Part shown: positions 6,926 to 27,983 of the stretch, one piece after another
How positions within the stretch are numbered: position 1 is the stretch's first letter
Layout: each line of letters starts with the position of its first letter
NCBI GenBank assembly: GCA_965227085.1
Contig: CBDDFO010000002.1
Span: 1,852,126 to 1,892,125, forward strand
Direction: 5' to 3'
Origin: Aliiglaciecola sp.
GTDB taxonomy: Bacteria > Pseudomonadota > Gammaproteobacteria > Enterobacterales > Alteromonadaceae
DNA length: 40,000 nt
Notes under the pieces: generated by a model
Database searches by the model: none
The model's input: only the letters and a program-made list of their open reading frames with translations
Told to the model about the DNA's origin: nothing
Position numbers and translations under genes: made by a program

Positions 6926-7140
6926 GTGTAGTGGCAGGACGTTATCGTCATTATAAAGGCAACGAATATGAAGTCATTGGTGTTGCCAGACATTCAGAAG
7001 ATGAATCAGAATTGGTAGTCTATCGACCTCTATATGGCGAAAGAGGATTGTGGGTTAGGCCCAAAGCCATGTTTTGTGAAACCGTCGAAATCGATGGCGA
7101 CATGCAACCCCGTTTCGCCCTTGTTGAGGCGTATACCTAA
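6922..7140 (+). CDS. DUF1653 domain protein
   Basis: 72 aa with the YRHYKGNEYEV...VVYRPLYG...LWVRP pattern typical of DUF1653. Overlaps the MFS stop by 4 nt. Confidence 0.75.
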   Translation: MSVVAGRYRHYKGNEYEVIGVARHSEDESELVVYRPLYGERGLWVRPKAMFCETVEIDGDMQPRFALVEAYT

Positions 7141-7511
7141 TGACGGATTCGGTTGTGGTCAACACAGAGCAAACTCAAAAAATGCTCAAGCGTTTGGACA
7201 GACTGGCGTGGTTGATGGACAAAAGCATTGGTTTACCTGGTGGATTCCGCATCGGCATAGACGGCCTGATTGGCTTGATCCCCGGCGTAGGAGACGTAAT
7301 AGGATTGCTGATCTCGTTGTATTTGTTTGTTTTGTCCTTGCAGATTAAAACCTCAACGGCGATCAAACTGAAAATGTTGTGGAACATCGCCCTTGAGTTC
7401 TTCATTGGCTCTATCCCCATCTTGGGAGATCTCTTTGATTTCTACTTCAAAGCTAACGTCAGAAACGTAGACTTGTTAAAAAAGCATCTTTCTACGCCAC
7501 AAAACACATAA
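7140..7511 (+). CDS. DUF4112 membrane protein
   Basis: 123 aa with the IGIDGLIGLIPGVGD motif and two TM segments. Start overlaps the upstream stop. Confidence 0.75.
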   Translation: MTDSVVVNTEQTQKMLKRLDRLAWLMDKSIGLPGGFRIGIDGLIGLIPGVGDVIGLLISLYLFVLSLQIKTSTAIKLKMLWNIALEFFIGSIPILGDLFDFYFKANVRNVDLLKKHLSTPQNT

Positions 7512-16253: not shown

Positions 16254-17213
16254 TTACCTATCCAAGGGGCTCGTTGTTCCAGAAGAATGCTGACCAATGA
16301 CATGCGTGTAAATTTGTGTTGTTCGCAAATCATTATGTCCAAGAAGCTCTTGCACTGTTCGTATGTCAGCACCTGAAAGAAGCAACTGTGTAGCAAACGA
16401 GTGCCTGAACGTATGTGCAGTTACGTGCTTCGTGACACCGGATTTCTTCACGGCTGCCCGTAGAGCTTTAGTCAATGCTGTCCAATGCAAATGATGACGA
16501 CAGTAGTAACCATCCACGGGATGTTGGCATCGAGTGGTCGATGGGAATAGATACTGCCACTTAAACTCTTTAATCGCATACGGATACTTCCTTGCAAGTC
16601 CTGGGGGGAGACTAGTTTCACCGCCACCTTCAGAAATGTCGCGTTGATGCAAGGCCTTCACTGACTCTATTTGCTTCTTCAGCGCAAGGACCAGATTATT
16701 TGGCAGCATAGTCACGCGGTCTTTTCCTCCTTTGCCGCGAAAGACAAATACGCTCTTGCCAGCAAAGTCGATATCTTTAATGCGGAGTTTAAGTAACTCT
16801 GCTTTACGTAACCCACAACCATAAAGCAACGAGAAGGCCAGTTTGTACTTCTCACTCATCTGACTGATTATGATAAGTGTCTCTTCATGACTAAGCACTG
16901 TGGGTACGCGCTTGGGTGCGCGGGCTCTCACAGTATCGGGTAGCAAGGTCAGTTCACGCTCGAATACATGCTTATACATAAACACGATAGCGCAGAGCGC
17001 AAGGTTCTGTGTTGATGAGGTGACATGGCGTTTAACGGCCAGGTAAGTTAGGAAGTCAGTCACTTCCTGCTCACCTAACTCTTTCGGGTGACGCTTCTGG
17101 TTAAACAGAATGAAACGTTTAATCCACAACAGATAGGATTTTTCTGTTTGGATAGAGTAATGCTTGGTGCGCATGATATTGCGAATTTGTTCTAGAAAAG
17201 GGCTCTGTCCCAT
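16254..17213 (-). CDS. intI: integron integrase
   Basis: Tyrosine recombinase with the IntI-specific extra segment (LARKYPYAIKEFKWQYLFPS...RHH). Catalytic residues are present (GLRKAE, HTFRHSFAT, GH, IYTHV) and there are no frameshifts. ATG 17213 follows a GGAG Shine-Dalgarno; the ORF track extends to TTG 17225. Confidence 0.92.
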   Translation of the reverse strand: MGQSPFLEQIRNIMRTKHYSIQTEKSYLLWIKRFILFNQKRHPKELGEQEVTDFLTYLAVKRHVTSSTQNLALCAIVFMYKHVFERELTLLPDTVRARAPKRVPTVLSHEETLIIISQMSEKYKLAFSLLYGCGLRKAELLKLRIKDIDFAGKSVFVFRGKGGKDRVTMLPNNLVLALKKQIESVKALHQRDISEGGGETSLPPGLARKYPYAIKEFKWQYLFPSTTRCQHPVDGYYCRHHLHWTALTKALRAAVKKSGVTKHVTAHTFRHSFATQLLLSGADIRTVQELLGHNDLRTTQIYTHVIGQHSSGTTSPLDR

Positions 17214-17240
17214 GAATATCTCCAATAAATAATGACGTGG

Positions 17241-17669
17241 AATTACTGAGAAGTCTCAGTAACACGCATCATAAAATTGGATTAATTGGCTTGTACCCTG
17301 CGCGATATATGGGTTTTTGTATAGTTTGGCGTTTGTAATTACTGAGAAGTCTCAGTAACACGCAATAAATTTACGTCATAATCATGCTGTAGGCCCCATC
17401 ATTGCTGAAAATGGGGTATGATTTGTATTTGTAATTAATGATAAGTCTTAGTAACACACACATTGACGCATCTAAAAATGCTAACGCATTGATTTACTTA
17501 TACTAGATTGCAAATTTAGCCCGTTATTACTGAGAAGTCTCAGTAATACGCATATAAAACGGTGTTTTTTTGTGTTGGAAAGGTTGTAAGCTACTGATAT
17601 TAAATACGAATATGGAGATTTGTTGCATGAAACCCACTGTGTGTTACTGTGAAGTCTTCATAATAAGAT
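17241..17669 (+). repeat. five direct copies of a ~28-bp element containing a 9-2-9 palindrome (TTACTGAGA-AG-TCTCAGTAA)
   Basis: Copies at 17241-17268 and 17337-17364 are identical. The copy at 17433-17460 has 4 mismatches, 17525-17552 has 2, and 17642-17669 is degenerate (17 of 28 match). Centre spacing is 96, 96, 92 and 117 bp, and the spacers are unrelated. Confidence 0.9.
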
Positions 17670-17953
17670 GTTATAGCGCGGGTTCTCTCTAAAGCTTAGT
17701 CCAATTCAGAAGTGGATTTCCGCTCAAATCTCCGAGCAAACAGGTGGTTGTTTTGCCAATCGGGCAAGGCTGTTTAAACGGGATTGCTCTTCACACCGAT
17801 TGCGCCAGTTGTCTTAACATTGCTCCAATGGGGACCACGAAATATCGGTTGTGGTTTTGTTCAAGGTTGGTTTAGTCTATGGGTAATAATTTTAATCATG
17901 TTGTTGTGCACACTCGTGGTGGCGGCAAAGCCGCGAAAGCTCAAAGGTTGGCG

Positions 17954-18051
17954 CAATAACAAACGTATGTTACGGACACATCCTCGCTGGCTTGGCTCGT
18001 GCCTCGCAATTTTAGCCAGCAAGTCTGCGCCGCAAATACAAAGCGTTATAT
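17954..18051 (+). other. attC site 1
   Basis: R'' CAATAAC ... R' GTTATAT, with internal dyad GCTGGC/GCCAGC and a central GCAATTTTAGCC block shared with attC 14 and 19. Confidence 0.7.
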
Positions 18052-18097
18052 TGCATGGTGTTTGATTGATCTGTAAAAGCCAACGGATAGGTAGTAT

Positions 18098-18298
18098 TTG
18101 AAGATGGAGTTGCTCACCTTAGTATTCGGTTTCTGGTTATTTCTCTTCAGTAAAATGTTTAGAGAAAGCTGGATATTTGAACTCAAAAAATCCAACCCAC
18201 TTTTTAAGTTCTTGCATGTAATTGAAGCCGGTATAGCTATTTTGATTGGTTTAGGTGCGCCTGTATTCGTTATTAAATTATTGATAGTGGGTGGGTAA
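18098..18298 (+). CDS. cassette 2: small 2-TM membrane protein (hypothetical)
   Basis: 66-aa ORF co-oriented with the array, with two hydrophobic segments. Weak Shine-Dalgarno. The cassette is only 338 bp. Confidence 0.4.
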   Translation: MKMELLTLVFGFWLFLFSKMFRESWIFELKKSNPLFKFLHVIEAGIAILIGLGAPVFVIKLLIVGG

Positions 18299-18302
18299 TG
18301 CA

Positions 18303-18389
18303 ATATAACAAGTTCATTAAGCAAGTTGCCGCTGAAAAGCGCGGCAAGGGACCCGCAAACTGCGCGGGCCCCTTATAAAAGCGTTATGC
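18303..18389 (+). other. attC site 2
   Basis: R'' ATATAAC ... R' GTTATGC. R'' is the reverse complement of G plus the cassette-2 start (TTATAT). Confidence 0.8.
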
Positions 18390-18748
18390 CTATGAATATT
18401 GATTACCAATCACTTATTCCGGTTGCTCTAAGAGCGCTGTATCCAGAAGAGGAAAAAAGAAAAGAAGTTGAACAGCTTCTTGAAGTTTACGGGACCGAAA
18501 CATTCCATAGAGAAAAATCCAGGGTAAGACTTGGTGTTCTTTATCTGGCATCACAAGAACCAGAAAAACTGGAATCATTTATTGATCTTGCATGTACTGA
18601 TTACCGAGACTTGCTCTGTGCGGCAGAATATCCGCACTCATCAAGACACTGGGGGCTTCAAGAGAAAGATCCTGAAAAATATAAAAAATTTCAGGTTAAA
18701 GAAGAGAAAGAGTATTTGGTATGGGTAGAAAGCATAAGCAATGCATAA
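18386..18748 (+). CDS. cassette 3: hypothetical cytosolic protein
   Basis: 120 aa. The ATG lies inside the R' core (GTTATGC) and the stop lies inside the next R'' (GCATAAC). No family recognised. Confidence 0.7.
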   Translation: MPMNIDYQSLIPVALRALYPEEEKRKEVEQLLEVYGTETFHREKSRVRLGVLYLASQEPEKLESFIDLACTDYRDLLCAAEYPHSSRHWGLQEKDPEKYKKFQVKEEKEYLVWVESISNA

Positions 18749-18828
18749 CAATTGCATTCACTGGAAAAAATAAAGCTACGCCGCTTCGCTCTGTAGCTTC
18801 ATTTTCCCAGTGATGCAGGGCGTTATGT
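18743..18828 (+). other. attC site 3
   Basis: R'' GCATAAC ... R' GTTATGT, with dyad CACTGG/CCAGTG. R'' complements the cassette-3 start TTATGC. Confidence 0.8.
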
Positions 18829-18849
18829 GTTTTCATGGTTGGGGGCAAT

Positions 18850-19185
18850 ATGCAAATTGAATCATTAGAGTCCTTGCAAAAAGAGGTTATAAACATCCTT
18901 AATGAAATAGATGTTGACGAACTGGAAGATGATTTAACTCATCAATTTATTGAGCATCATGTATTGACGTTGTCTTTGAAAGCTCACACATATAAAGAAA
19001 TGATTTTACGTAACAACCTTACTCGCGAAGAACAGCTAAAATTTAAAAAGTATCTTGGTATATATACTAAGTTAGAAGAGGCCGTTGCAGGTAGACTAGA
19101 TACGCTAACTACAGCAAAACTCTATGATCAAATCCTTACGTTTAAATCAATACTTGATGCCAATGTTACAGAACAAAACACATAA
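18850..19185 (+). CDS. cassette 4: hypothetical helical protein
   Basis: About 111 aa, charged and probably helical. ATG 18850 follows a G-rich Shine-Dalgarno; ATG 18835 is an alternative start. Confidence 0.7.
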   Translation: MQIESLESLQKEVINILNEIDVDELEDDLTHQFIEHHVLTLSLKAHTYKEMILRNNLTREEQLKFKKYLGIYTKLEEAVAGRLDTLTTAKLYDQILTFKSILDANVTEQNT

Positions 19186-19266
19186 CAAGCCAATCTTGTT
19201 TGGACGTTTACTCGCTGGCACTTCGTGCCAAAGCGCTCGCAAACGCCACAAATTGGAGCGTTAAGC
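19180..19266 (+). other. attC site 4
   Basis: R'' ACATAAC ... R' GTTAAGC. R'' complements the cassette-4 start TTATGT. Confidence 0.8.
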
Positions 19267-19578
19267 GCCGGGCAAGATACCAAAGAAGTACAGAAATCAA
19301 AACTAAGGCTAAAAACCGAACCTTGGTACAGTTAAATAGTTTTCAACTTTCGTGTACGCTTTAGCGTCTTGCGTCGCCTCAGAAACTCGTTTCTAAAGGG
19401 CAAAGCAAGACACTAAAGCAAGGAAGTCAAACTATGCAATGTGCCCGGATCCGGATACTCGGCTTAAATTTGCAGTCAGGACAACCGAGATGAACTCAAC
19501 TTATATGGTTGTTTTGCCATCGCTTAACAACCTGTTACACGACACCAGCAAAGAGCACTGGGTCGTGAACCAGAAACG
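19261..19578 (+). other. cassette 5: ORF-less structured cassette
   Basis: A bona fide cassette: it starts TTAAGC and its own R'' is GCTTAAC. There is no ORF of 60 aa or more on either strand. It contains a 15-bp imperfect stem (19358-19372 / 19405-19419) enclosing a nested 6-bp hairpin. Confidence 0.7.
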
Positions 19579-19584
19579 TTAGCT
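19522..19584 (+). other. attC site 5 (short, 63 bp)
   Basis: R'' GCTTAAC, L'' GTTACACGAC / L' GTCGTGAAC, R' GTTAGCT. Confidence 0.75.
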
Positions 19585-19591
19585 GTACAAA

Positions 19592-20062
19592 ATGAAATTC
19601 GAACTAATTAAATATACAGACCTAAACCGGAAGCATTTCGAAGAATCTCTTACATGGGCTCAATACTATGAACCTGATGACATCGAATCTCTCGAAGAAC
19701 TTGGTTTTGACCGTCAAGTGGTATCAGCGGAGTTGGAGAAAGTTGGTTGGTCTGACGAGTATTGGTTCGCGGTTCCAGAAGAAACTAAAGTTGGCTCATT
19801 TATGTTTGAGCACCGAAAGGCCAATTTTGTAACTGAATCTGGAAAGAAAATAGATGGCTATGTAGTAAACTCGGGACATTGTATTTGCTTGTTCGGCGCC
19901 GAAAAGGAATGGGATATAAATATCAATCTTCTTGACCTGTTGGAGGAAGAAATCGATGATCTTAGAGTTGATGTTGGCCTAAAAGAAAGTGAAAAGCTAC
20001 TGCCCCTAGAGGTACGCATTTCATTTAAGGGTGTTCAATTTACATTCGCAGAGAGCAGCTAA
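19592..20062 (+). CDS. cassette 6: hypothetical acidic cytosolic protein
   Basis: 156 aa, rich in Asp and Glu, with no TM segment. The ATG lies 8 nt after the attC. No family recognised. Confidence 0.8.
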   Translation: MKFELIKYTDLNRKHFEESLTWAQYYEPDDIESLEELGFDRQVVSAELEKVGWSDEYWFAVPEETKVGSFMFEHRKANFVTESGKKIDGYVVNSGHCICLFGAEKEWDININLLDLLEEEIDDLRVDVGLKESEKLLPLEVRISFKGVQFTFAESS

Positions 20063-20143
20063 CAAAGCTATGCATTTGACGTCAAAAAGCTTCGTTCGTT
20101 TCACTCACTGCACTATTTGCCGCAAATGATAGCGGCGTTATGG
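20057..20143 (+). other. attC site 6
   Basis: R'' AGCTAAC ... R' GTTATGG. R'' complements the cassette-6 start TTAGCT. Confidence 0.8.
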
Positions 20144-20157
20144 GTAAGAGAGTGAAC

Positions 20158-20427
20158 ATGAAAGTGCTAGTCGTTATTGTGGTTCTGTTGATGTGCTCGG
20201 CAGTTCTTCTAATGCGGTTTGGTTTTATCGTTTTTGACCGACACGTATTTGACTTTCAGGTTCAACCAATAATTAAAGCAGACAAAGTAACAAACATTAG
20301 AGAATACAAAATCATCCACGAATATATAGAGATGAGTTTTGAAAAAGACGCAGACAAGTTTGCTTCAGACCCTCTTTTCGTGAGACTAGATTCAATGTTG
20401 GGAGAATATGAAACAACTTACCCATAA
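20158..20427 (+). CDS. cassette 7: small N-terminally anchored protein (hypothetical)
   Basis: About 89 aa with an N-terminal hydrophobic helix (MKVLVVIVVLLMCSAVLLM). An alternative ATG at 20140 lies inside R'. Confidence 0.65.
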   Translation: MKVLVVIVVLLMCSAVLLMRFGFIVFDRHVFDFQVQPIIKADKVTNIREYKIIHEYIEMSFEKDADKFASDPLFVRLDSMLGEYETTYP

Positions 20428-20532
20428 CAAGGCGCTTAAATTCACTCACTTCGTTCGCTGGGACAATTTTTCATTGGCTGGCGCTTCGCGCAGTATAGCC
20501 AACTCAAATTGCCCCTTAGCTTTGCGTTATGT
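20422..20532 (+). other. attC site 7
   Basis: R'' CCATAAC ... CTGGGACAA / TTGCCCC boxes ... R' GTTATGT. Confidence 0.8.
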
Positions 20533-20537
20533 GACAG

Positions 20538-20903
20538 GTGGAAAATTTAACTTTTATGGCCTTAAGTGAATTCGAAATAAAGAAGATAGAAAAAGCTGCC
20601 AACGCTTTTTTAAATAAGCGTAGGCCGCCAGTGCATATTAGAAATGAGTTAGACATTGGTTGGCGGCTGGAGAAGCAATCAGTTTATATATATGAAACAC
20701 GTCCTGTTTGGAACAGCCCAAATGAATATCATGACCTGGATATGGCTAAAGCAACTTTTATCCGCGCTCAAGGTAAATGGAAAATTTTCTGGATGCGACA
20801 AGATCTAAAATGGCATGGCTATGAGCCAAATATGTATGTAAAAACTATTGAGCAAGTCTTTGCCGTTATAGGTCATGATGAATACGCTTGTTTTTTTGGG
20901 TAA
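20538..20903 (+). CDS. cassette 8: DUF3024-like protein
   Basis: 121 aa. The RRPPVHIRNELDIGWR...KWKIFWMRQDLKWHGYEP...DEYACFFG pattern matches what I recall of DUF3024. GTG start; an alternative ATG lies 6 codons in. Confidence 0.75.
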   Translation: MENLTFMALSEFEIKKIEKAANAFLNKRRPPVHIRNELDIGWRLEKQSVYIYETRPVWNSPNEYHDLDMAKATFIRAQGKWKIFWMRQDLKWHGYEPNMYVKTIEQVFAVIGHDEYACFFG

Positions 20904-20906
20904 GTC

Positions 20907-21015
20907 ACATAACAAAAAAATCAAGTTCGCCCGCTGCGCGGGCTGGGACGCAAGCACGCGGTGCGGCTTCGCCATTATGCCCCACGCGCCTGCGCCCCTT
21001 ATTTAAAAGTTATGT
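20907..21015 (+). other. attC site 8
   Basis: R'' ACATAAC ... GCTGGGAC / GCGCCCC boxes ... TTATTTAAAAGTTATGT. The 3' end is shared with attC 17. Confidence 0.8.
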
Positions 21016-21027
21016 GTATTTTCTGCC

Positions 21028-21375
21028 ATGAAATTAGATATTGCTCTGACATCAAAAGTTTATAGCAATTACTCGCTTGATGATTCCTCTCAGAAGGATT
21101 GGGATGAATTTAAATCAGAAAACAAATCGTATTTTGAAAAGTTACTCCCGATAACGATTGATACAGGAATAGACTTTGATAAACCCTGGGAGTTATCAAA
21201 ATTGGATAACTGTACCGTTATAGAGTATTTCTGCGCAGGAATGATGGATGAAGAATCTATTTTCTTAGATCATGATTATTATGGTATCAACCTTTGGAAA
21301 ACGAGTTGGCCAGGAGAGGCAAGTTTTGGTACAGATAAAATATTGTGCTTCGCAGTGGTTGTCGGTCACACATAA
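21028..21375 (+). CDS. cassette 9: hypothetical cytosolic protein
   Basis: 115 aa, acidic, with no TM segment. The stop lies inside R''. Confidence 0.7.
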   Translation: MKLDIALTSKVYSNYSLDDSSQKDWDEFKSENKSYFEKLLPITIDTGIDFDKPWELSKLDNCTVIEYFCAGMMDEESIFLDHDYYGINLWKTSWPGEASFGTDKILCFAVVVGHT

Positions 21376-21474
21376 CAAGTTGCCTAATTTCGCCGCAAAA
21401 AGCGCGGCTGGGACAAATACTCACAGGGCTTCGCCCAACAACGTTCGCATTTGCCCATTGGCAAAGCGTTATAT
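21370..21474 (+). other. attC site 9
   Basis: R'' ACATAAC ... GCTGGGACAAATAC / ATTTGCCCA ... R' GTTATAT. Confidence 0.8.
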
Positions 21475-21492
21475 GCTCAGAAAGTGGATGAA

Positions 21493-21765
21493 ATGATAGA
21501 AGCGCTAACTTACTTCGCACTCAGTTTGTATTTAGTTGTGAGCTTTTTTGTATCCATGTTTATCCTTAAAAGAGACGATCTTGATACATTTCAAAAATCA
21601 GCTCAAACAGTATTAGTTTGGTTAATACCACTTCTTGGCGCGCTCATTTTTTGGCGAGTAAACAAAAGTCATGATGTGGCTTTTAGGAGGGGGAGAGAGT
21701 TTGGTGGCGGTGCTAGCAAACTAGGTAGTTACGATTCTGCTGGAGACGGCGGTGGCAGTGATTAA
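21493..21765 (+). CDS. cassette 10: small 2-TM protein, PLDc_N-like, Gly-rich tail
   Basis: About 90 aa. It has two TM helices with a WLIPLLGALIFW motif reminiscent of the PLD-nuclease N-terminal (PLDc_N) family, and a C-terminal GGGASKLGSYDSAGDGGGSD tail. The ORF-track start at 21451 lies inside attC 9. Confidence 0.6.
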   Translation: MIEALTYFALSLYLVVSFFVSMFILKRDDLDTFQKSAQTVLVWLIPLLGALIFWRVNKSHDVAFRRGREFGGGASKLGSYDSAGDGGGSD

Positions 21766-21771
21766 AGTCGC

Positions 21772-21876
21772 ATATAACAAGGCAACACAATTCGGACCAA
21801 AATTCGCTGTCACATCTATTGCAAACAGCGCAACAAATGCGCCATCAACTTTTGGCCGTTGGTTTTGGCGTTATAT
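21772..21876 (+). other. attC site 10
   Basis: R'' ATATAAC ... R' GTTATAT. About 7 mismatches to attC 11 and 13 over ~100 bp by manual alignment. Confidence 0.85.
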
Positions 21877-21900
21877 GCCAAGAAGGAGATTCGACTATTG

Positions 21901-22269
21901 ATGTACATAGTGATTTTTTTAGTCGCATTATCGTGTATTGAATTGTTGATTTTGGCAGATAGAAAAAAGGGGATAGTTGCGTCTTCGGGAATGGCGGCCT
22001 TAATAACTATTTGCCTTTGTCTTTATTTCTACTTTGGTCAAGGCAGCTCTTATGCGAGAGAAATTCAGCCTCTAAATCTATTATTTACAAACTTGATAAT
22101 AGCAGCGGTGCCAACTCTTCTTTTCCTATATTTCGCTTATTTAAGCCGCAACTTTGAAGGAGCAATAGTTACTCATTCAATGGCACTCGCTTTTTCACTT
22201 GTAACTAGTTTCGGGTTTCCATTTTTTGTATTAGTTACCGGCTGCTACACTGGATTAGATTGTATTTAA
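21901..22269 (+). CDS. cassette 11: 4-TM membrane protein (hypothetical)
   Basis: About 122 aa with four hydrophobic segments. AAGGAG Shine-Dalgarno upstream of ATG 21901. Confidence 0.7.
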   Translation: MYIVIFLVALSCIELLILADRKKGIVASSGMAALITICLCLYFYFGQGSSYAREIQPLNLLFTNLIIAAVPTLLFLYFAYLSRNFEGAIVTHSMALAFSLVTSFGFPFFVLVTGCYTGLDCI

Positions 22270-22287
22270 AGGTTGTTTTAAGTTGGC

Positions 22288-22392
22288 ATATAACAAGGCA
22301 ACGCAAATCGGACCAAAACTCGCTGTCACATTTATTGCAAACGGCGCAACAAATGCGCCATCAAATTTTGGCCGTTGGTTGCGGCGTTAGGT
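22288..22392 (+). other. attC site 11
   Basis: R'' ATATAAC ... R' GTTAGGT. The internal ~98 bp differ from attC 13 at a single position. Confidence 0.85.
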
Positions 22393-22396
22393 ACAC

Positions 22397-22831
22397 ATGG
22401 ATAGTTCAGGCATATTCTTAAATATTGGCAAAAGTATTCTAGCTCTCGCTATAGCACTTTTCGTTATTTTTTGGTTCCCAAGTCCTGCTTTTGATGCCTG
22501 TTTTCCTGATAATAGTTCTTACGTGTGTAGCCAATGGCCCAAGATATTTGCTGGGTGTGTGTTTATCTTAGTTTCATACTTTCTCGGCCCTAAAAGTAAA
22601 TATCACTATTTTCCTGTTTTCATGCTTTTTGCGTACATTGGTAGTGCGGAGCACATCAGGTTTGGTGGGCAACTTTTAGATGTCCTATTTCAAATGCCGT
22701 TCCAAACATTTTACTACGGCGGCATCATTGCTTTAGTAGTAATTACTGCGGTAAAGTTTATAAAACGTAACTGGGTGCAAAGTGTACCTAACAAGCTAAT
22801 AAATAAGGACTATGTTCCTCCCCCGTTTTAG
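22397..22831 (+). CDS. cassette 12: 4-TM membrane protein (hypothetical), 3' end altered by IS insertion
   Basis: 144 aa with four hydrophobic segments. Removing the IS and one CTA copy restores ...AAG GAC TAA, so the IS replaces the stop and adds YVPPPF. Confidence 0.7.
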   Translation: MDSSGIFLNIGKSILALAIALFVIFWFPSPAFDACFPDNSSYVCSQWPKIFAGCVFILVSYFLGPKSKYHYFPVFMLFAYIGSAEHIRFGGQLLDVLFQMPFQTFYYGGIIALVVITAVKFIKRNWVQSVPNKLINKDYVPPPF

Positions 22832-22864
22832 TGGACACCTCCTCTTTACAATGAGGAGGGCAAA

Positions 22865-23239
22865 ATGCCTCGATATACACAACCAAGAAAGACATGGTTT
22901 TATCCGATAGATTTCAAAATTAAGGCAGTCGAACTAAGCTTACAGAACGATGTAATGTCCAAGGATGTTGCTCAAGCACTTGATATTCACCCGCTAATGC
23001 TAAGCCGTTGGCGTAAAGAATATCGAGAAGGTAAATTTTCCCAAACGTCCCGCTACCAAAGCAGCAATGAATTAATGAGTAAAGTCCCGACTAAAAGAGA
23101 GCTTGGTTCAATTCAAAAGCTCAAAAAAGAAAACGAACGTTTGAGGCAGGAGAATGACCTGCTAAAAAAGTGGCAACGGTATCTGGCGGAAGTACATCAG
23201 AACGATTTGGATTCATCCAAAGATTCGGTCAAACGCTAG
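22865..23239 (+). CDS. IS3-family transposase OrfA (HTH)
   Basis: 124 aa with an N-terminal helix-turn-helix-like region and a leucine-zipper-like C-terminus (KKENERLRQENDLLKK). Confidence 0.9.
   Translation: MPRYTQPRKTWFYPIDFKIKAVELSLQNDVMSKDVAQALDIHPLMLSRWRKEYREGKFSQTSRYQSSNELMSKVPTKRELGSIQKLKKENERLRQENDLLKKWQRYLAEVHQNDLDSSKDSVKR
23164..23170 (+). promoter_or_regulatory. programmed -1 ribosomal frameshift site (A AAA AAG)
   Basis: The A6G heptamer is in the orfA zero frame (cta AAA AAG tgg), at the start of the orfA/orfB overlap. This is typical for IS3-family OrfAB fusions. Confidence 0.75.
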
Positions 23240-24057
23240 GCGTCAGATACTTATGCTCTTGGCTGAAGGTTTCTCGCAGCGGCTATTATGCTTGGTGCAA
23301 TCGTCCAATATCGGCTCGTGCTATTTCTGACATTGATTTGCTATCTCAAATAGAGCGAGTCTTTAATGCAAATCATCAAACGTACGGCAGTCCTAGGATA
23401 TTCCAGGCCCTTAAACGAGAAGGCGTTAGAACGAGCAGAAAGCGTGTGGCGCGTTTGATGCAGGAAAATGGATTACAAGCGCGAGCATTGAGGACTTACA
23501 GCAAGCCTGCAAAGGTTAAGCTCTTCTACAGCGAGATTGAAAACAGACGCAAAGAAATCGGTAAACCTACGGCAATTAACCAACAGTGGTCAGGTGACAT
23601 AACCTACTTGAAGGTGGGGACGAGCTGGCACTATTTGGCGGTCGTCATCGATTTGTTTTCACGCCGTATTGTCGGTTGGGCATTTGGGAACAATAAAACC
23701 ACTAAGTTGACTCTTAAAGCACTTAAGCTTGCTATGAAAAAACGAAAACCCATGAATGCCATTGTATTTCATACAGATAGAGGCGCTGAATACCGAGCAC
23801 ATGTGGTTCAAACCTTTTTGGCGAGCCACAATATTACGGCCAGCATGAACCGTCCTGGATGCTGCACAGACAACGCTGAAGTGGAGTCCTTTTTTCATTC
23901 ATTAAAGGCAGACCTAATTCGAGGGAATAGGTTCGATAAAGCAACAAACTTGCACTCTAGGTTAAAGGGGTACTTGAATTACTTCTACAATAGACAGCGT
24001 TTGCATTCGAGCTTAGGATATAAAACACCTGCCGAGTTTGAGTTGGCAGCAAATTAA
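23170..24057 (+). CDS. IS3-family transposase OrfB (DDE/rve domain)
   Basis: rve integrase-core blocks (WSGDITYL, HTDRGAEYRA, CCTDNAEVESFFHSLK). Probably expressed as an OrfAB fusion. Confidence 0.9.
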   Translation: MATVSGGSTSERFGFIQRFGQTLGVRYLCSWLKVSRSGYYAWCNRPISARAISDIDLLSQIERVFNANHQTYGSPRIFQALKREGVRTSRKRVARLMQENGLQARALRTYSKPAKVKLFYSEIENRRKEIGKPTAINQQWSGDITYLKVGTSWHYLAVVIDLFSRRIVGWAFGNNKTTKLTLKALKLAMKKRKPMNAIVFHTDRGAEYRAHVVQTFLASHNITASMNRPGCCTDNAEVESFFHSLKADLIRGNRFDKATNLHSRLKGYLNYFYNRQRLHSSLGYKTPAEFELAAN

Positions 24058-24178
24058 AAAATGGAGGTGTCCATTTTTGCGGGGGAAGATCACTAAAAAC
24101 AGTTTGCTGTTTTCGTTCCTCAACATTTTAGCAAACTATTTTTAGCCCATTATTAGGGCGTTATGCATTGTGGACAAA

Positions 24179-24532
24179 ATGAATAAACTACCAATTGTTT
24201 TGTTAGTAATCGCGGTCTGTGTCACATTGGTTTCATATGATTTGTTTGTTAACTTTGGACTGCTAGACACTTATGGCGAATTTTACAGATTAATAGTGAG
24301 CCCAATTGCCCCGAGCAGTGAGGTGGAGATGCGCCCAGTGGGCGTGTTTTTGGAAGAGGAACATTTCGGGCTTGGGGCTGTAGGCCTGACTTGCACGATA
24401 CTATTGGTTGCAATAGCAATTGAAGCTAAAAGGTATAAGGTATTTGGTAAATCCAAACGGTCTTCTGGCGTTGTGGCGCTTTCAACAGCCACGTTATTCG
24501 TCAACATTCAATTGTTATGGTGGCTCTTGTAA
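24179..24532 (+). CDS. cassette 13: 3-TM membrane protein (hypothetical)
   Basis: About 117 aa with three hydrophobic segments. Start is ATG 24179 or GTG 24170. Confidence 0.65.
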   Translation: MNKLPIVLLVIAVCVTLVSYDLFVNFGLLDTYGEFYRLIVSPIAPSSEVEMRPVGVFLEEEHFGLGAVGLTCTILLVAIAIEAKRYKVFGKSKRSSGVVALSTATLFVNIQLLWWLL

Positions 24533-24533
24533 T

Positions 24534-24638
24534 GCATAACAAGGCAACGCAAATCGGACCAAAACTCGCTGTCACATTTATTGCAAACGGCGCAACAAAT
24601 GCGCCATCAACTTTTGGCCGTTGGTTGCGGCGTTAGCA
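24534..24638 (+). other. attC site 13
   Basis: R'' GCATAAC ... R' GTTAGCA. Near-identical to attC 11. Confidence 0.85.
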
Positions 24639-24654
24639 TTACTACAAACTATTG

Positions 24655-24975
24655 ATGAAAAACCTTAATGTAAACTGCCCAAACTGTCATTCAAGTTTTA
24701 ATGTGTTTTCGATGTGGGCAAAACAAACCAAACTAAATCACTACAAATGTAATTTTTGCGGTGAAACAAGTACATTTGAGGGTGCCAACGCAAGCGCTAT
24801 TGTTAATATCATTTCAATTGCCACATTCTTCGTATTAGGAATAGTCGCAATTGAATATTCGGGTAGTTGGTTAGGCTTAGTGGTACCAGGGATTTTGTAT
24901 TTACCTTTGGGTTACCTATGCCATCTACGTAATTGTAAAAATAAAAAGCTTTGTCTCGTTAAAAGGCAATGCTAA
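24655..24975 (+). CDS. cassette 14: zinc-ribbon + 2-TM protein (hypothetical)
   Basis: N-terminal CPNC...CNFC pair (a zinc-ribbon-like pair of CxxC motifs) followed by two TM helices and a basic Cys-containing tail. Confidence 0.7.
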   Translation: MKNLNVNCPNCHSSFNVFSMWAKQTKLNHYKCNFCGETSTFEGANASAIVNIISIATFFVLGIVAIEYSGSWLGLVVPGILYLPLGYLCHLRNCKNKKLCLVKRQC

Positions 24976-25069
24976 CAAGGCGCTCAAGCAAGGAATTTTA
25001 AAGTTTGGCTCGGCTCGTGCCTCGCCAATTTTAGCCAAACTCTAAAATCCTCTTAGCTTGTCGTTAAGC
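24970..25069 (+). other. attC site 14
   Basis: R'' TGCTAAC ... GCCAATTTTAGCC centre ... R' GTTAAGC. Confidence 0.8.
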
Positions 25070-25085
25070 AAACAAGGATAGTCCA

Positions 25086-25550
25086 ATGAAATTTGTAATT
25101 ACGTTAATTTCCTTAATTATTTTCTCACTAACTGCTTTTGCGGATGAGACATTGTCTGAAAGTGAGCTAAAACAAAAAGCTGAAGCATTCATACAAGCGA
25201 AAAATGCGAGGCAACAACCAAACACAACCGTTGAAGACATAGATCATTTCATTTCATTTTTGGCTGATGAATTCATTGATGAACATCTGAAATTTAATGT
25301 CACTACGACAAGTAAGGAAGAACTTCGACAAGGAATGATAGCGAAGATGAAAGACAAGGTAATCTTCAGTGAAATTAAAATTGACCAGATGATGTTTGGA
25401 CGCAATGTGGTATTCGTCAAATATACGGAACACGCTAAAGTCAAACCTAGCCACATGGATAAGGTCATAGAGTATACAAGCACTAATATAATGTCTCTAG
25501 AGTTTGGTGATAATGGTCTTATCAAACATATTCGTAGACATCATGCGTAA
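25086..25550 (+). CDS. cassette 15: secreted protein, possibly NTF2/SnoaL-like fold
   Basis: 154 aa with a signal peptide (MKFVITLISLIIFSLTAFA). The fold assignment is a weak impression only. Confidence 0.7.
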   Translation: MKFVITLISLIIFSLTAFADETLSESELKQKAEAFIQAKNARQQPNTTVEDIDHFISFLADEFIDEHLKFNVTTTSKEELRQGMIAKMKDKVIFSEIKIDQMMFGRNVVFVKYTEHAKVKPSHMDKVIEYTSTNIMSLEFGDNGLIKHIRRHHA

Positions 25551-25556
25551 GTGTTT

Positions 25557-25643
25557 GCTTAACAAGCCGTTTAACGAAAACGCCAGCAAACAACACTGGC
25601 ACGGACTCGCAAACTGCGCTCGCCCGTTAACGGAGCGTTATGT
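25557..25643 (+). other. attC site 15
   Basis: R'' GCTTAAC ... dyad CCGTTTAACG/CGTTAACGG ... R' GTTATGT. Confidence 0.8.
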
Positions 25644-25686
25644 TTTTCTGCAAATTAATAGGGATTTTAAAAAGGAATTGAATTAA

Positions 25687-26220
25687 ATGAAGTTCTTTAA
25701 GTTTACAGCGTTAATATTGGTTGTTGTCATTATTACCGCCATATTGTCATACCAGAAAATCATCTCAGATATATTGATACCCCAATATGTTGACTGGGCT
25801 TACGAAACCGAAAGAAAAGGCTTGGATTCCGGAGTTCCTTTAAACTCACGAGAATTAGCTTTGGCAGCCGAGATAGGAATTAAAAAACCAGAGAACGTCA
25901 GGATTGTACATTTTGATGAAGTTCCGTTTCCACACGAAAACTTCGCTCTAAAGACATTAGGTGAAGCACTAGGCTTCATTGGTGAAGGTATCACTAACAA
26001 TGCTCAGGCTTTTGGTTATTCTATTTATGTTCGTAACGGATATGAATTAAATAGGCCCAAATTGGCTCATGAATTGGTTCACGTGCTTCAAATAGAAAGG
26101 TCCAATCTTGACCAAGTGATAACTCAGCACTTCTCTGACATAGCAGAATTTGGTTATGACAAAGCACCTCTAGAAGTCGAGGCTTTTAAAGCAAACAAAC
26201 AGTATGCAGCCGATTGGTAG
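25687..26220 (+). CDS. cassette 16: membrane-anchored HExxH zinc-metallopeptidase-like protein
   Basis: 177 aa with an N-terminal TM helix. The AHELVHVLQ motif (HExxH followed by xxQ) resembles the DUF4157-type peptidase motif. Confidence 0.75.
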   Translation: MKFFKFTALILVVVIITAILSYQKIISDILIPQYVDWAYETERKGLDSGVPLNSRELALAAEIGIKKPENVRIVHFDEVPFPHENFALKTLGEALGFIGEGITNNAQAFGYSIYVRNGYELNRPKLAHELVHVLQIERSNLDQVITQHFSDIAEFGYDKAPLEVEAFKANKQYAADW

Positions 26221-26241
26221 TTAAACGTTGTGGTATAAAAA

Positions 26242-26358
26242 ACATAACAATCGCATAAACACTCGCTTCGCTCGCAGGGGACAAATACACGTAGGCTTCC
26301 CTCGCTTTGCTCGGTATTTTAGCCTACGTATATTTGCCCGTTATGCGGGCCGTTAGCC
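26242..26358 (+). other. attC site 16 (117 bp)
   Basis: R'' ACATAAC ... GGGGACAAATAC / TATTTGCCCG ... R' GTTAGCC. Confidence 0.8.
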
Positions 26359-26373
26359 TACTGGGAACGTACG

Positions 26374-26796
26374 ATGTTTTTCCTAAGTTTTTTCATCTTT
26401 CTCGGCACATTGATATTGGGTTTCTGGTTCGGTAATTCCTTAGGGTTATTTACCGATTTAACATTTCCAACTATTCTGTTATTGGTCTTGCTACCTAGTA
26501 TTACTTTTACAATTTATGCGAATTCCCTATCAGCTATAAAGCAATCATTCGCAGACTTAAATAGTGGCGGTAAAAGCCTCATTGCTCAAAAAGTTTTAAA
26601 GTGCTTTGGCAACACGTCACTTTTAATAGGTATTGCAGTCACTCTCTTAAATATCTTATCAATCGCTTTTAATTGGGGGACACCTGTTACACCTGCATAC
26701 CTAGCAGCTGCATTTTCAACGGCGTTACTATCAAGTTTCATCGGCTTGGTTATAAAAATTTGCTGTGTAGTTGGTTTTTATAAGGCTCAGGGGTAG
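26374..26796 (+). CDS. cassette 17: 4-TM membrane protein, faint MotA/TolQ/ExbB-like C-terminal half
   Basis: 140 aa. The GNTSLLIGIAVTLLNI...PAYLAAAFSTALLSSFIGLV pattern resembles the last two helices of the MotA/ExbB channel family. Tentative. Confidence 0.65.
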   Translation: MFFLSFFIFLGTLILGFWFGNSLGLFTDLTFPTILLLVLLPSITFTIYANSLSAIKQSFADLNSGGKSLIAQKVLKCFGNTSLLIGIAVTLLNILSIAFNWGTPVTPAYLAAAFSTALLSSFIGLVIKICCVVGFYKAQG

Positions 26797-26800
26797 AGTA

Positions 26801-26905
26801 GGCTAACAAAAAAATTAAAACGTGCGCGGGGCGCACTGGGACAAAAACACAGCGCCGCTTCGCGATTGTAGCGCTGTATTTTTGCCCTTTATTTAAAAGT
26901 TATAC
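26801..26905 (+). other. attC site 17
   Basis: R'' GGCTAAC ... CTGGGACAAAAAC / TTTTTGCCC ... TTATTTAAAAGTTATAC. Confidence 0.8.
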
Positions 26906-26919
26906 GCCAGAATGAGTTC

Positions 26920-27498
26920 ATGTCGTTGAAGAAAAAACTAAGAAGTATTATCTCATTTTTATTTGCTTCCACAGCTCTTGTTTGTGTGCTGAATATTATT
27001 GATTTTCCATATGAATTTAGATTTATTGAGCGCCAATATGATTACTTGTTTGTTACTGTCTTGTGTATCTTACTTCCAACTACGGCTTTTCTATGGTCAA
27101 TAATTTGTATCAAGCAAAATTGGTATAAACTAACTGGTATCATTGCTGTGTTAGGTTTATCTCTGTTTTGTTATTTTATTGGATTATTTTCTTATGGAGA
27201 CTATCAGGAAATTGGTGCATCTGGCGTTGACTTTTCATTTGAAGAAATTGAAAGGTTGAATTTCGAGAACAAAAGCTATGTTTTGTATCGCACAAATGGC
27301 GGGGCTACCACAGCATTTGGACTTGTACTGAGAACAGAATATCCTTTTTTAGATATGTTTAAATTAATTCACCGAACATACGATAAATATGAGGCTTACG
27401 AAGGGCACTTGAAGCCAAAAAATAACGAGCAGTTTTCTCTAACTATAGAGCCATATTCCGAAGGCGAAAAGGTGGAAGTTTTATGGTTCAAGATTTAG
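26920..27498 (+). CDS. cassette 18: 3-TM N-terminus + soluble C-terminal domain (hypothetical)
   Basis: 192 aa with three hydrophobic segments followed by a ~90-aa hydrophilic domain. No family recognised. Confidence 0.7.
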   Translation: MSLKKKLRSIISFLFASTALVCVLNIIDFPYEFRFIERQYDYLFVTVLCILLPTTAFLWSIICIKQNWYKLTGIIAVLGLSLFCYFIGLFSYGDYQEIGASGVDFSFEEIERLNFENKSYVLYRTNGGATTAFGLVLRTEYPFLDMFKLIHRTYDKYEAYEGHLKPKNNEQFSLTIEPYSEGEKVEVLWFKI

Positions 27499-27499
27499 C

Positions 27500-27583
27500 G
27501 TATAACAAGCGACTTATGCCGCCAAACAAGTTTGGCTGTGACACAGCGGCTGCGCCACTGCGCACCATAGTCGAACGTTAGTT
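27500..27583 (+). other. attC site 18
   Basis: R'' GTATAAC ... R' GTTAGTT. R'' complements the cassette-18 start TTATAC. Confidence 0.8.
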
Positions 27584-27606
27584 GTACTTAATCTGAGTCA
27601 GAGTAA

Positions 27607-27978: not shown

Positions 27979-27983
27979 CGTAC

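Follow-up and report, generated by a model that had tools for sequence, protein, structure and literature searches.

The five palindromes that separate the integron integrase gene intI from the first gene cassette in the 40,000-nucleotide stretch of DNA analysed here (the window) are a conserved and evenly spaced part of the attI site in a family of integrons from marine bacteria. They would be cis-acting protein-binding sites within an unusually long attI, and they probably bind a protein that aids recombination and that, in the lineage of the window, controls intI instead of the SOS system (LexA). The most likely binder would be the integron integrase (IntI) itself.

Palindrome array and attI core

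The palindromes have the same orientation and fill the interval between the intI ATG (17213) and the attI crossover GTTAT (17670). Their repeat units start at 17238, 17334, 17430, 17522 and 17639, which gives start-to-start spacings of 96, 96, 92 and 117 bp, and palindrome 1 begins 27 bp from the intI ATG. The 9-2-9 core, TTACTGAGAAGTCTCAGTAA, is matched exactly at 17243, 17339 and 17527, while palindrome 3 (17435) carries three core mismatches and palindrome 5 (17644-17663, TTACTGTGAAGTCTTCATAA) four. In total, core matches gave seven strand-hits, compared with none in 100 dinucleotide-preserving shuffles. The features of the region are the following:

16254-17213, minus strand: intI, encoding an integron integrase of 319 aa, counted from the ATG at 17213 (TIGR02249; Pfam PF00589 and PF13495)
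17220-17226, minus strand: intI ribosome-binding site, ATTGGAG, read from the sequence; the equivalent 'ctccaat' is kept in orthologous platforms
17243-17262 (unit 17238-17268), no strand assigned: palindrome 1, exact core, predicted to lie over +1 to about +20 of the intI transcript
17268-17273, minus strand: TATGAT, the putative -10 hexamer of Pint, with palindrome 1 starting 5 nt downstream
17339-17358 (unit 17334-17364), no strand assigned: palindrome 2, exact core
17435-17454 (unit 17430-17460), no strand assigned: palindrome 3, three core mismatches
17527-17546 (unit 17522-17552), no strand assigned: palindrome 4, exact core, last but one in the array, with the core copy 117 bp further on
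17587-17600, no strand assigned: conserved mid-interval block, TAAGCTACTGATAT, whose bottom strand, ATATCAGTAGCTTA, fits the IHF consensus WATCAR-N4-TTR
17644-17663, no strand assigned: palindrome 5, the attI core copy, TTACTGTGAAGTCTTCATAA, with its right arm as the L box
17670-17676, plus strand: attI R box and crossover point, G/TTATAG (slash at the crossover), at the junction with the first cassette; crossover GTTAT at 17670-17674
17955-28086, plus strand: array of gene cassettes, in which some 20 attC sites (R'' ATAACAA ... R' GCGTTAT) were located by a regular-expression scan and covariance model R1

The array had been described in the first-pass annotation, and its five same-orientation copies are confirmed. 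Compared with the 28-mer used there, copies 1 and 2 are identical, copy 4 differs at two positions and copy 3 at four, as reported. The spacers, described as unrelated, indeed share little similarity within the array. A bottom-strand GTTAC had been assigned to each copy; this does not hold for copy 4, which has ATTAC. Copy 5 had been called degenerate; it is more than that, its right arm being the L box of the attI core.

The site lies between the divergently oriented intI and the first cassette (first attC at 17955-18051), which is the position of an attI site. At 17659-17676, CATAAT-AAGAT-GTTATAG provides an R box with an imperfect inverted L box, as is characteristic of attI. The right arm of the last copy lies 5 bp from the GTTA crossover, in the L-box position. 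The CATAATAAGnTGTTA junction is found as in the window in 74 related loci, and the GTTA junction is the same in all related arrays. The longer pattern TTACTG(A/T)GA-NN-TCTnCATAA-TAAGnT-GTTA is kept in 23 loci linked to intI and in at least 51 without it. The palindrome arm, (A/G)TTACTGAGA, closely resembles the bottom strand of the L box (ATTATGAAGA in the window, ATTATGGAGA in Colwellia). Compared with the L-box form ATTAT(G/A)nAGA, it is a related sequence of the GTTA type expected of accessory sites.

The copies had also been proposed to be reiterated attI-like cores. This is not supported: the last copy is the one place where cassette junctions are seen, and the palindromes are not hit by the attC model. 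This covariance model (R1), built from 18 attC sites, recovers about 20 sites in the window and nothing in 17214-17900. Two further readings of the core region were dropped. The last module as a disguised attC gives a crude regular-expression match only, with non-complementary L''/L' arms and no signal from the attC model. An inverted repeat of the L box with the sequence about 20 bp upstream of it (TTATGGGAC...GTCTCCATAA) occurs in Colwellia and, in part, in the window, but other lineages lack it.

Conservation and distribution of the attI modules

A scan of reference genomes located at least 119 loci with the core, nearly all of them in Alteromonadales. In 28 of these it lies directly upstream of IntI homologues with 65-90% identity (intI-linked platforms), and at least 51 further loci have an attI core 115-119 bp after a palindrome. 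Most of the other loci are incomplete, variants or chance matches in unrelated phyla. A same-strand attC site follows within 2.5 kb in 37 of the 55 intI-less cores, and most of the others run into the end of the sequence. The copies sit in attI modules of two to five palindromes, either beside intI or at the head of integrase-less cassette arrays. Palindrome 2 occurs only in five-copy arrays (the window, L002, L032, L078, L082 and plasmid pTE101a).

The geometry of these modules is strongly constrained. The interval between the penultimate and the last palindrome measures 115-119 bp in 71 of 78 arrays, and the inner intervals 92-96 or 103-106 bp. These lengths correspond to about 9, 10 and 11 helical turns, with a mean phase of 0.4 bp for a helical repeat of 10.5 bp. 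Across genera, the distances of the palindromes from the intI ATG and from the crossover vary by at most 1-2 bp. Between orthologous arrays, the palindromes are 85-98% conserved and the spacers 61-83%, and the proximal-copy core is exact in all 28 intI-linked platforms; these estimates are biased upward, since the loci were found via one exact core, and the arrays are phylogenetically related. With its palindromes, the attI site is about 165-460 bp long. The first-pass annotation had recognized the array itself and missed its conservation across genera, the fixed final distance of about 117 bp and the modules without intI.

The modules are found in Alteromonas, Aliiglaciecola, Glaciecola, Paraglaciecola, Rheinheimera, Alishewanella, Colwellia, Thalassotalea and Psychromonas, that is, in several host families, as well as on a plasmid of A. 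macleodii. In Bowmanella, a member of the Alteromonadaceae with an IntI of 63% identity, the integron is devoid of palindromes; in Psychrosphaera (IntI 70%) they are decayed, and in a relative with a 61% IntI the last copy takes a variant form that is symmetric, GCGA..TCGC. This pattern of presence and absence indicates that the palindromes track the IntI clade and not the host. In Colwellia, the intI-less modules start exactly at the upstream attC junction. Their left end carries GGTGCGCA, which was considered as a dif-like XerC arm and rejected, the XerD half being mismatched. Since intI-less modules retain their palindromes, the function of these cannot be the control of intI alone.

No regulator gene was found beside the palindromes across the at least 119 loci, and IntI is the only recurrent protein neighbour. 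The clustering of neighbours was done in two rounds, first on the ORFs closest to the palindromes and then on every ORF of 50 aa or more up to 2 kb away, and returned only IntI and a few other tyrosine recombinases. No published description of the palindromes was found in the literature. A search for the string TTACTGAGA gave unrelated papers only, and the Alteromonas genome papers mention attI and attC, not the palindromes.

It could be argued that the palindrome is a selfish miniature repeat of the REP or MITE type, which accumulates upstream of intI. Genomes of Colwelliaceae/Thalassotalea contain many copies (at least five loci in T. euphylliae, for example), the number per array ranges from two to five, and in intI-less modules one left arm is joined to differing palindromes, pointing to recombination at or between copies. 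The dispersed copies, however, are whole attI modules with core and cassettes, placed at fixed offsets from the intI ATG and the crossover, to within 1-2 bp across genera. Moreover, the spacers are orthologous between arrays, and there is no associated transposase or RAYT gene. Accordingly, a generic REP or MITE element was rejected, the dispersed copies among the matches listed being entire attI modules of fixed geometry. A selfish origin is thereby left with a very low probability, and the tiny palindromic mobile repeat put forward earlier has to be rejected, the copies belonging to attI modules. The expectation that the palindrome is integron-specific rather than a genome-wide REP was borne out among these same matches.

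The intI promoter and the LexA box

The intI product scores 417 bits against the integron integrase model TIGR02249 (cut-off 265), and homologues with 65-92% identity adjoin the same palindromes in other loci. The hexamer TATGAT at 17268-17273 may represent the -10 box of Pint. A -10-like hexamer (TATAAT/TATGAT/TACAAT/TATCAT/TATTAT) occupies this position in 15 of the 16 platforms that have their first palindrome at about 29 bp. A consensus promoter scan did not call it, for want of a good -35; that of the proposed Pint is weak. The single promoter called by the scanner, at 17355-17382, is not conserved in related loci. The right edge of each palindrome was also considered as a pseudo-core (ATAAT-GCGT-GTTAC, minus strand). 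This arrangement is limited to the window lineage, and its ATAAT is better explained as the Pint -10, so the pseudo-core was dropped.

Only two sites of the LexA form CTGT-N8-ACAG occur in the 40-kb window, at 4583-4598 (upstream of a dinB-like ORF, 4621-5679) and at 14423, and none lies within the intI-attI interval (17214-17700). The spacing of the palindrome is CTG-N8-CAG, which does not fit this 16-mer. Among the 28 intI-linked platforms, the first palindrome is located 28-31 bp from the ATG in 16, none of which has a LexA box. In the other 12, it is located at 78-81 bp, and 11 of these have an exact CTGT-N8-ACAG; the sole exception, L117, retains only part of intI. In Colwellia, the proximal palindrome is moved out by 50 bp, and a canonical LexA box is found in its place. 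Several of the LexA-less platforms, including that of the window, encode a full-length IntI (315-321 aa). This dichotomy, together with the conserved -10 box, places the first palindrome at the predicted start of intI transcription. The earlier view that SOS control of intI seems replaced or supplemented here is supported in that the palindrome stands at the usual site of such control.

The outer bases of the palindrome, TACTG...CAGTA, do fit a gamma-proteobacterial LexA box, and they raise the question of whether it is a variant LexA operator that keeps the integron under SOS control. This is highly improbable. The spacing is CTG-N8-CAG rather than CTG-N10-CAG, and dinB in this genome is preceded by a canonical box. 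In addition, Colwellia platforms combine a true LexA box and palindromes at separate positions, which shows the two elements to be distinct. The view of the first-pass annotation, that this is not a LexA box, is upheld on these grounds.

The palindromes could also act in a folded form, either as RNA stem-loops of the intI leader and of cassette transcripts (a 5'-end stabiliser, or an insulator that separates divergent promoters) or as hairpins or cruciforms of single-stranded or supercoiled DNA, sensed by IntI or the replication machinery. For every copy a hairpin is predicted, at -12 to -13 kcal/mol (z-scores from -3.5 to -5.6). The one in the putative intI leader would occupy the extreme 5' end and leave the ribosome-binding site free. 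At flank positions 1-3, 5 and 6, complementarity exceeds that of shuffled sequences, with base pairs that differ between copies, and in some copies the symmetry extends over a further 10 bases; the penultimate class (palindrome 4) has the most symmetric flanks. Integron recombination, moreover, offers a precedent in the folded single strands of attC. On the other hand, degenerate copies lose their symmetry without compensatory changes in the core, and the 18 core bases are conserved as a sequence, not merely as pairing, across an IntI divergence of 65-100%. The variant arms of palindrome 3 (TTAATGA..TCTTAGTAA) recur in orthologous copies, so these changes are inherited and not compensatory. 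An examination of hairpin covariation likewise gave a flank symmetry that is real but weak. Helical phasing and a fixed distance of 117 bp would apparently be meaningless for RNA hairpins, and a leader hairpin would account for one copy out of five, in LexA-less lineages only. There are no T-runs, and no terminator-like site was called in 17100-17900, so the palindromes do not behave as intrinsic terminators. A search of Rfam with the window and the left arms of the intI-less modules gave no match for the palindromes. The only Rfam match, in L023, is an unrelated group II intron domain. Folding is considered an unlikely explanation of the array.

Candidate binding proteins and related systems

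We tentatively read the palindromes as putative accessory IntI-binding sites, which would build a looped attI complex and autoregulate intI; this is the leading reading, at somewhat less than an even chance. IntI is favoured as the binder because the arm resembles the L box and the last copy forms it, and its status as the sole recurrent neighbouring protein lends support. IntI dimers would sit on the palindromes, along one face of the helix, 9, 10 or 11 turns apart. A bend at the mid-interval block would help the penultimate palindrome to reach back to the L-R core. The resulting looped nucleoprotein complex may favour or filter attI x attC recombination, with the palindromes in the role that DR1 and DR2 have in attI1. 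In the window lineage, the proximal palindrome starts 5 nt after the predicted -10, and its occupancy would block transcription. Negative autoregulation of intI would then substitute for LexA.

The mid-interval block is a candidate bend site within the final 117-bp interval. In 54 of 74 arrays, its general form, NAA-N4-YTGAWW, lies at a distance of 57-61 bp beyond the penultimate palindrome, and in 57 it is found anywhere in the interval, while shuffles predict 4.1 arrays. The strict IHF consensus is present in 11 of the 74 arrays and the relaxed form in 57. No consistent -10 was found downstream of the block. A cassette promoter beside the palindromes was also considered and rejected. Some Colwellia alone combine the conserved TTGAWW block with a good -10 (TTGAAA-N16-GATAAT); the window lineage does not.

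Several observations argue against IntI. The arms are arranged tail-to-tail, with their GTTA ends outward, which is opposite to the recombination core. The palindromes are 117-430 bp from the crossover, and we know of no IntI accessory site anywhere near such a distance. With 319 aa, IntI is of ordinary size and has no extra arm-binding domain. Phased operators at distances of 92-117 bp would be just as typical of looping repressors, and a flank symmetry built from different sequences in each copy fits selection for hairpins as well as protein contacts.

A host-encoded dimeric or tetrameric repressor of the Alteromonadales, looping over Pint and the cassette promoter, is a possible though doubtful alternative. 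The 9-2-9 dyad, perfect and with its central dinucleotide free, has the shape typical of a helix-turn-helix dimer site, and tail-to-tail arms are natural for a repressor and unnatural for a recombinase. The spacings of 92-96, 105 and 116-117 bp are whole helical turns; known repression loops are of similar size, with 92 bp between lac O1 and O3 and about 113 bp between gal OE and OI. The first palindrome covers the predicted transcription start, where Colwellia has its LexA box. In Vibrio, attIA x attC recombination is reported to need a host factor yet to be named (PMC8946536), and this also counts for a host protein. Nevertheless, no regulator gene is linked to the at least 119 loci. Among the matches listed, almost no palindromes lie outside attI modules, so that the repressor would have a regulon of one kind of site. 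The Bowmanella integron, in the same host family as Alteromonas, has no sites, and the modules also reach a plasmid. The last copy overlaps the L box, which would bring a repressor into competition with IntI at the core. The intI-less modules keep their sites without a Pint, and no consistent cassette promoter can be placed beside the palindromes. For the present array, we favour a role as accessory sites over an operator for an unknown dimeric regulator, both of which had been suggested in the first-pass annotation.

Known systems share parts of this architecture. The attI1 sequence, confirmed in more than 4,800 plasmids, contains the stretches GTTATGGAGCAG and GTTACGCAGCAG, which we take to be the accessory repeats DR2 and DR1; with the boundaries that we assume, DR2 reads GTTATGGAG and DR1 GTTACGCAG. 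IntI1 binds two accessory repeats in attI1 (PMC12901181, PMC8946536), and DR1 and DR2 reportedly promote recombination between attI and attC, possibly as a topological filter (PMC8946536). Extra recombinase-binding boxes upstream of the L-R core are thus found in attI1, as the palindromes would be here. The attI1 boxes start with GTTA, to be compared with ATTATGGAGA (L box, bottom strand) and (A/G)TTACTGAGA in the present family. However, attI1 has direct repeats within about 55 bp of the crossover, whereas here there are perfect 9-2-9 palindromes, up to four plus the core copy, at 117-430 bp and whole helical turns apart. Also, one palindrome overlaps the predicted start of intI transcription, unlike the attI1 boxes. 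In orientation and distance, the palindromes do not correspond to DR1 and DR2; only the left arm of the last copy, at -27 from the crossover, is DR-like.

The intasome of lambda attP also has distant recombinase sites that are brought to the core by a bend, like the long attI proposed here, where an IHF-like block (a motif match) lies midway between the penultimate palindrome and the core. Lambda Int, however, has an arm-binding domain and a distinct arm-type motif, while IntI is without a separate domain and the arm here resembles the core L box. The res sites of the Tn3 family combine a crossover site with accessory inverted pairs of recombinase motifs that filter synaptic topology, comparable to the array; they serve a serine recombinase and have contiguous subsites within about 120 bp, against a spacing of about 100 bp here. 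Compared with the LexA operator at Pint, the palindrome shares position and outer bases, and the two are mutually exclusive across lineages; the spacing is 2 bp shorter in the palindrome, which is reiterated through attI and stands alongside a LexA box in Colwellia. Attachment sites of the attI type away from intI, within cassette arrays or at their head, are known from the Delta-attI gene cassettes (PMC12901181) and, as integrase-less attC arrays, from Alteromonas (PMC4119200). The displaced units described here are complete non-coding modules with palindromes, often several per genome.

In a wider and more speculative reading, which we consider possible and hardly likely, this attI would be a self-contained, portable machine of nucleoprotein. 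Phased palindromic IntI sites and a bend would fold at least about 170 bp onto the crossover, self-shutoff by IntI would replace LexA in one lineage, and the module would itself move in the manner of a non-coding attI-type cassette. For attI x attC recombination, chromosomal integrons seem to depend on further factors (PMC8946536); such a site would be efficient without the host factors that the others need. The family also bears on how functional integrases without LexA control are held in check (PMC3108266), and self-shutoff by IntI, if true, would be the 'secondary adaptation' postulated for functional integrases without SOS regulation. If a host repressor acts instead, integrase and cassette expression would be under a signal other than DNA damage. 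A mobile module, if true, would seed new points of insertion, and possibly of expression, inside and outside arrays.

The attI family is relevant to the question of what an efficient attI requires in addition to the L-R core. It provides a natural experiment, with two, three, four or five palindromes and the phasing kept, and with sister lineages that differ in whether a LexA box or a palindrome occupies the predicted start of intI transcription. Dozens of integrase-less attI modules head cassette arrays. As the attI of this clade is recognizable by its sequence, clusters of attC sites without an integrase can be re-annotated, and the attI modules themselves may move like cassettes.

The palindrome array between intI and attI

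The first-pass annotation had claimed five same-orientation copies of a palindromic repeat in the intI-attI interval. These were borne out as repeat units within 17238-17669, and chance would be expected to give none in the window.

Features of the window
4583-4598: canonical LexA box upstream of a dinB-like gene (motif scan)
14423: canonical LexA box (motif scan of the 40 kb)
16254-17213, minus strand: intI, full-length integron integrase (TIGR02249, 417 bits against a cut-off of 265; Pfam)
17238, 17334, 17430, 17522, 17639, same orientation: starts of repeat units 1-5
17587-17600: mid-interval block TAAGCTACTGATAT, of the form NAA-N4-YTGAWW
17955-28086: attC sites of about 20 cassettes, downstream of GTTAT at 17670 (attC scan and covariance model)

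The units are spaced by 96, 96, 92 and 117 bp. Their core, TTACTGAGAAGTCTCAGTAA, is a perfect 9-2-9 palindrome, exact at copies 1, 2 and 4, with three mismatches in copy 3 and four in copy 5. Copy 1 starts 27 bp from the intI ATG, and the right arm of copy 5 ends about 5-6 bp ahead of the GTTAT crossover at 17670.

Among the matches listed, 78 distinct arrays hold two (n=16), three (n=49), four (n=8) or five (n=5) copies. The last interval measures 115-119 bp in 71 of these 78, and the inner ones 92-96 bp (65 cases) or 103-106 bp (13). The three interval classes approximate 9, 10 and 11 turns of a 10.5-bp helix (mean phase 0.4 bp), a helical phasing that is suggestive and not statistical proof, because the arrays are related by descent. 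In orthologous arrays the spacers are 61-83% identical vs. 85-98% for the palindromes, a value somewhat inflated by the need for one exact core per locus at discovery. The arrays are thus inherited as units, with the palindromes under stronger constraint. The proximal copy, nearest intI, is exact in 28/28 intI-linked platforms, and the penultimate one usually is. The symmetry tends to run on into three to six bases of the flanks, most clearly at the penultimate copy.

Inner copies decay, with no compensatory changes seen. Action of the palindromes as folded RNA or DNA, which we consider improbable, could draw on hairpins of -12 to -13 kcal/mol, the intI-leader one lying at the 5' end and leaving the RBS free. 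No terminator features were found at the array, and no Rfam matches for the palindromes.

The motif NAA-N4-YTGAWW sits 57-61 bp past the penultimate palindrome in 54 of 74 arrays, and anywhere in the last interval in 57 (about 4 expected). In the window, the bottom strand of this block fits the IHF consensus WATCAR-N4-TTR, which is strictly kept in only 11/74 arrays. No consistent -10 was found after it across arrays, so the block is not convincingly a promoter.

The attI core and modules with and without intI

The final copy reads TTACTG(A/T)GA-NN-TCTnCATAA-TAAGnT-GTTA in every lineage, and its right arm occupies the L-box position relative to the crossover GTTA. The last copy is the predicted attI core. 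Bottom-strand reading gives ATTATGAAGA as the L box of the window and ATTATGGAGA as that of Colwellia. Ordinary arms read (A/G)TTACTGAGA; the palindromes are thus tail-to-tail pairs of L-box-like sequences. The boundaries of the repeats DR1 and DR2 within attI1 follow the attI1 literature. The attI1 sequence was confirmed in more than 4,800 plasmids. Its IntI1-bound repeats (PMC12901181, PMC8946536), GTTATGGAGCAG and GTTACGCAGCAG, were set beside the arms described here. A metagenomic contig (L124, IntI 61%) has the core copy ATACCGCGAATTCGCAGTAA in the last 40 bp ahead of GTTAT. It keeps the family layout, with GAGA..TCTC symmetrically replaced by GCGA..TCGC (ACCGCGA-AT-TCGCAGT), a variant that could have co-evolved in a more distant integrase lineage.

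A scan with TTACTGAGA-NN-TCTCAGTAA, one genome per species, gave at least 119 loci. Among the matches listed, nearly all are from Alteromonadales (Colwellia, Alteromonas, Thalassotalea, Aliiglaciecola, Glaciecola, Paraglaciecola, Rheinheimera, Alishewanella), where every copy is intergenic; the few from unrelated phyla are evident chance hits. In 28 platforms from these listed matches, the window counted, a palindrome sits immediately upstream of a gene for an IntI homologue (65-90% identity), and the neighbouring genes of the remaining loci form no clusters.

The loci without intI at first gave the impression of a dispersed repeat, which was dropped once attI cores were read in them. At least 51 are attI sites without adjacent intI, because they carry the same degenerate last copy and CATAATAAGnTGTTA 115-119 bp past a palindrome. 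With a covariance model built from 18 attC sites, a same-strand attC was detected within 2.5 kb downstream at 37 of 55 intI-less cores; most others run into the sequence end. Where no core was recognised, the locus mostly has a further copy at a distance of about 94-118 bp or a variant of the core, or lies where a block or contig ends. Among the matches listed, the palindrome is thus specific to attI modules. The 20-mer is not scattered through these as a genome-wide REP-like element, the outcome by which the first-pass annotation would have been refuted, and we give little credit to a selfish repeat.

Complete modules (palindromes plus core) without adjacent intI are common and occur in many genomes (loci L003, L006, L042, L047, L071, L075, L078, L098, L105, L114 and others), each heading a same-strand attC cassette array. 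In Thalassotalea euphylliae at least five are spread over distant parts of the chromosome, and several attC sites follow each of them. Present annotation would label such arrays integrase-less attC clusters. The Alteromonas-type modules share a ~130-bp left arm (...ccttctaaactcatacttgaaccccatcaa...ccggac) abutting the first palindrome (L054, about 1700-1830; L006, about 1750-1878 and 7080-7207; L031; L038), in which neither an ORF nor an Rfam match was found. The integrase-less attC arrays that have been reported from Alteromonas (PMC4119200) may represent such modules. Which palindrome of the array this arm abuts differs from copy to copy; the number of modules thus changes through recombination at or between palindromes.

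In a Colwellia locus (L089, 1850-3300), three tandem modules lie inside the cassette array; L102 and L019 also have modules within arrays. Each L089 module starts exactly at G|TTAT of the upstream attC and ends in an attI core, followed by a cassette. These modules, placed like non-coding cassettes with an attI-type recombination site, may be mobile, and recall the delta-attI cassettes of mobile integrons (PMC12901181). At their left ends, Colwellia modules without intI (L072, L105, L106, L094, L109) conserve the motif GGTGCGCA-N8-12-GAC(A/G)TTAGC, which contains a short inverted repeat (GCTAATGnC...GnCATTAGC). The first half of the motif is similar to the XerC arm of dif; the remainder fails to match.

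An integron of this family, with an uninterrupted intI frame and the five-palindrome array, is present on A. macleodii plasmids (pTE101a, L120, NZ_CP018322.1, 113.8-115.3 kb; and NZ_OX359242.1); intI is missing from the plasmid gene table. The window attC sites (17955-28086, Alteromonas-type) and those of Colwellia L081 and L106 form one sequence family, ATAACAAG...GGAC...ATTTTAGCCAAC...GGCGTTAT; their detection by a single model suggests a cassette pool shared across families. One intI-less module has a group II intron domain (RF00029, Rfam 48.5 bits; L023, 3414-3483) a few hundred bp further downstream. Integrases or modules of this family also occur in assemblies labelled Bacteroidota or Spirochaetota: Tenacibaculum sp. 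KUL118 (P0005, IntI 91%), Flavobacterium sp. (L013), a Saprospiraceae MAG (L087) and a Leptonemataceae MAG (L039). The explanation is contamination or mis-binning, or else transfer beyond Alteromonadales.

The proximal palindrome and LexA control of intI

Among the matches listed, the 28 platforms split cleanly by proximal palindrome position, and the two arrangements never mix. In 16 (the window and Alteromonas, Aliiglaciecola, Glaciecola, Paraglaciecola, Rheinheimera and Alishewanella platforms), the palindrome lies 28-31 bp from the ATG and a LexA box is absent; in the window, none was found near intI, the only two in the 40 kb being those at 4583-4598 and 14423. In 15 of these 16, the intI strand has a -10-like hexamer (TATAAT, TATGAT, TACAAT, TATCAT or TATTAT) 5 nt ahead of the palindrome, so the palindrome should cover about +1 to +20 of the intI transcript.

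In the other 12 platforms (Colwellia and relatives), the proximal palindrome is at 78-81 bp. An exact CTGT-N8-ACAG LexA box, at offset 16-17, is found in 11; the exception, L117, keeps intI only partly. A TTGATC-N17-TATAAC promoter precedes the box, with the centre of the palindrome near -64. In Colwellia-type L081, the box lies at the intI transcription start (3775-3790), with equivalents in L055, L058, L070, L022, L108, L014 and L123. Psychromonas (IntI 73%) likewise has both elements, and we give little credit to the palindrome as a LexA operator variant. The window lineage has lost the LexA box that Colwellia- and Psychromonas-type platforms keep beside the palindromes. Several LexA-less platforms, the window's among them, encode a full-length IntI of 315-321 aa. 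In marine integrons, loss of LexA control is rare and usually accompanies integrase inactivation; for the exceptions, secondary adaptations were postulated (Cambray et al., PMC3108266). One specific candidate is the palindrome at the predicted start of intI transcription.

Candidate binders of the palindromes

The palindromes would, on a tentative reading that we hold at slightly less than even confidence, be accessory IntI sites building a looped attI and autoregulating intI. IntI is favoured because intI is the sole gene recurring beside the sites (among the matches listed) and because these occur essentially only within attI modules. The distribution of the sites also tracks that of the IntI clade, spanning host families and reaching pTE101a, which has a 90% identical IntI and the same five-copy array. 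Bowmanella, which belongs to the host family of Alteromonas, lacks them in its integron (IntI 63%), and in Psychrosphaera (IntI 70%) they have decayed. The symmetric last-copy variant of the 61% relative and the L-box-like arms argue in the same direction, as do the intI-less modules, which keep palindromes and the 117-bp geometry with no Pint to regulate. The tail-to-tail arms, the distance of the sites from the crossover and the ordinary domain content of IntI count against it. So does the use of just such phased dyad operators, 92-117 bp apart, by looping repressors. Binding by a host repressor is rather unlikely in our judgement.

No published description of a palindromic attI array was found in literature searches. 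The array is real, conserved and, among the matches listed, attI-specific; its mechanism is what we infer. It is best read as an attI with putative accessory sites that are palindromic, phased and far-reaching, and that in the window lineage stand at the usual place of the LexA operator.
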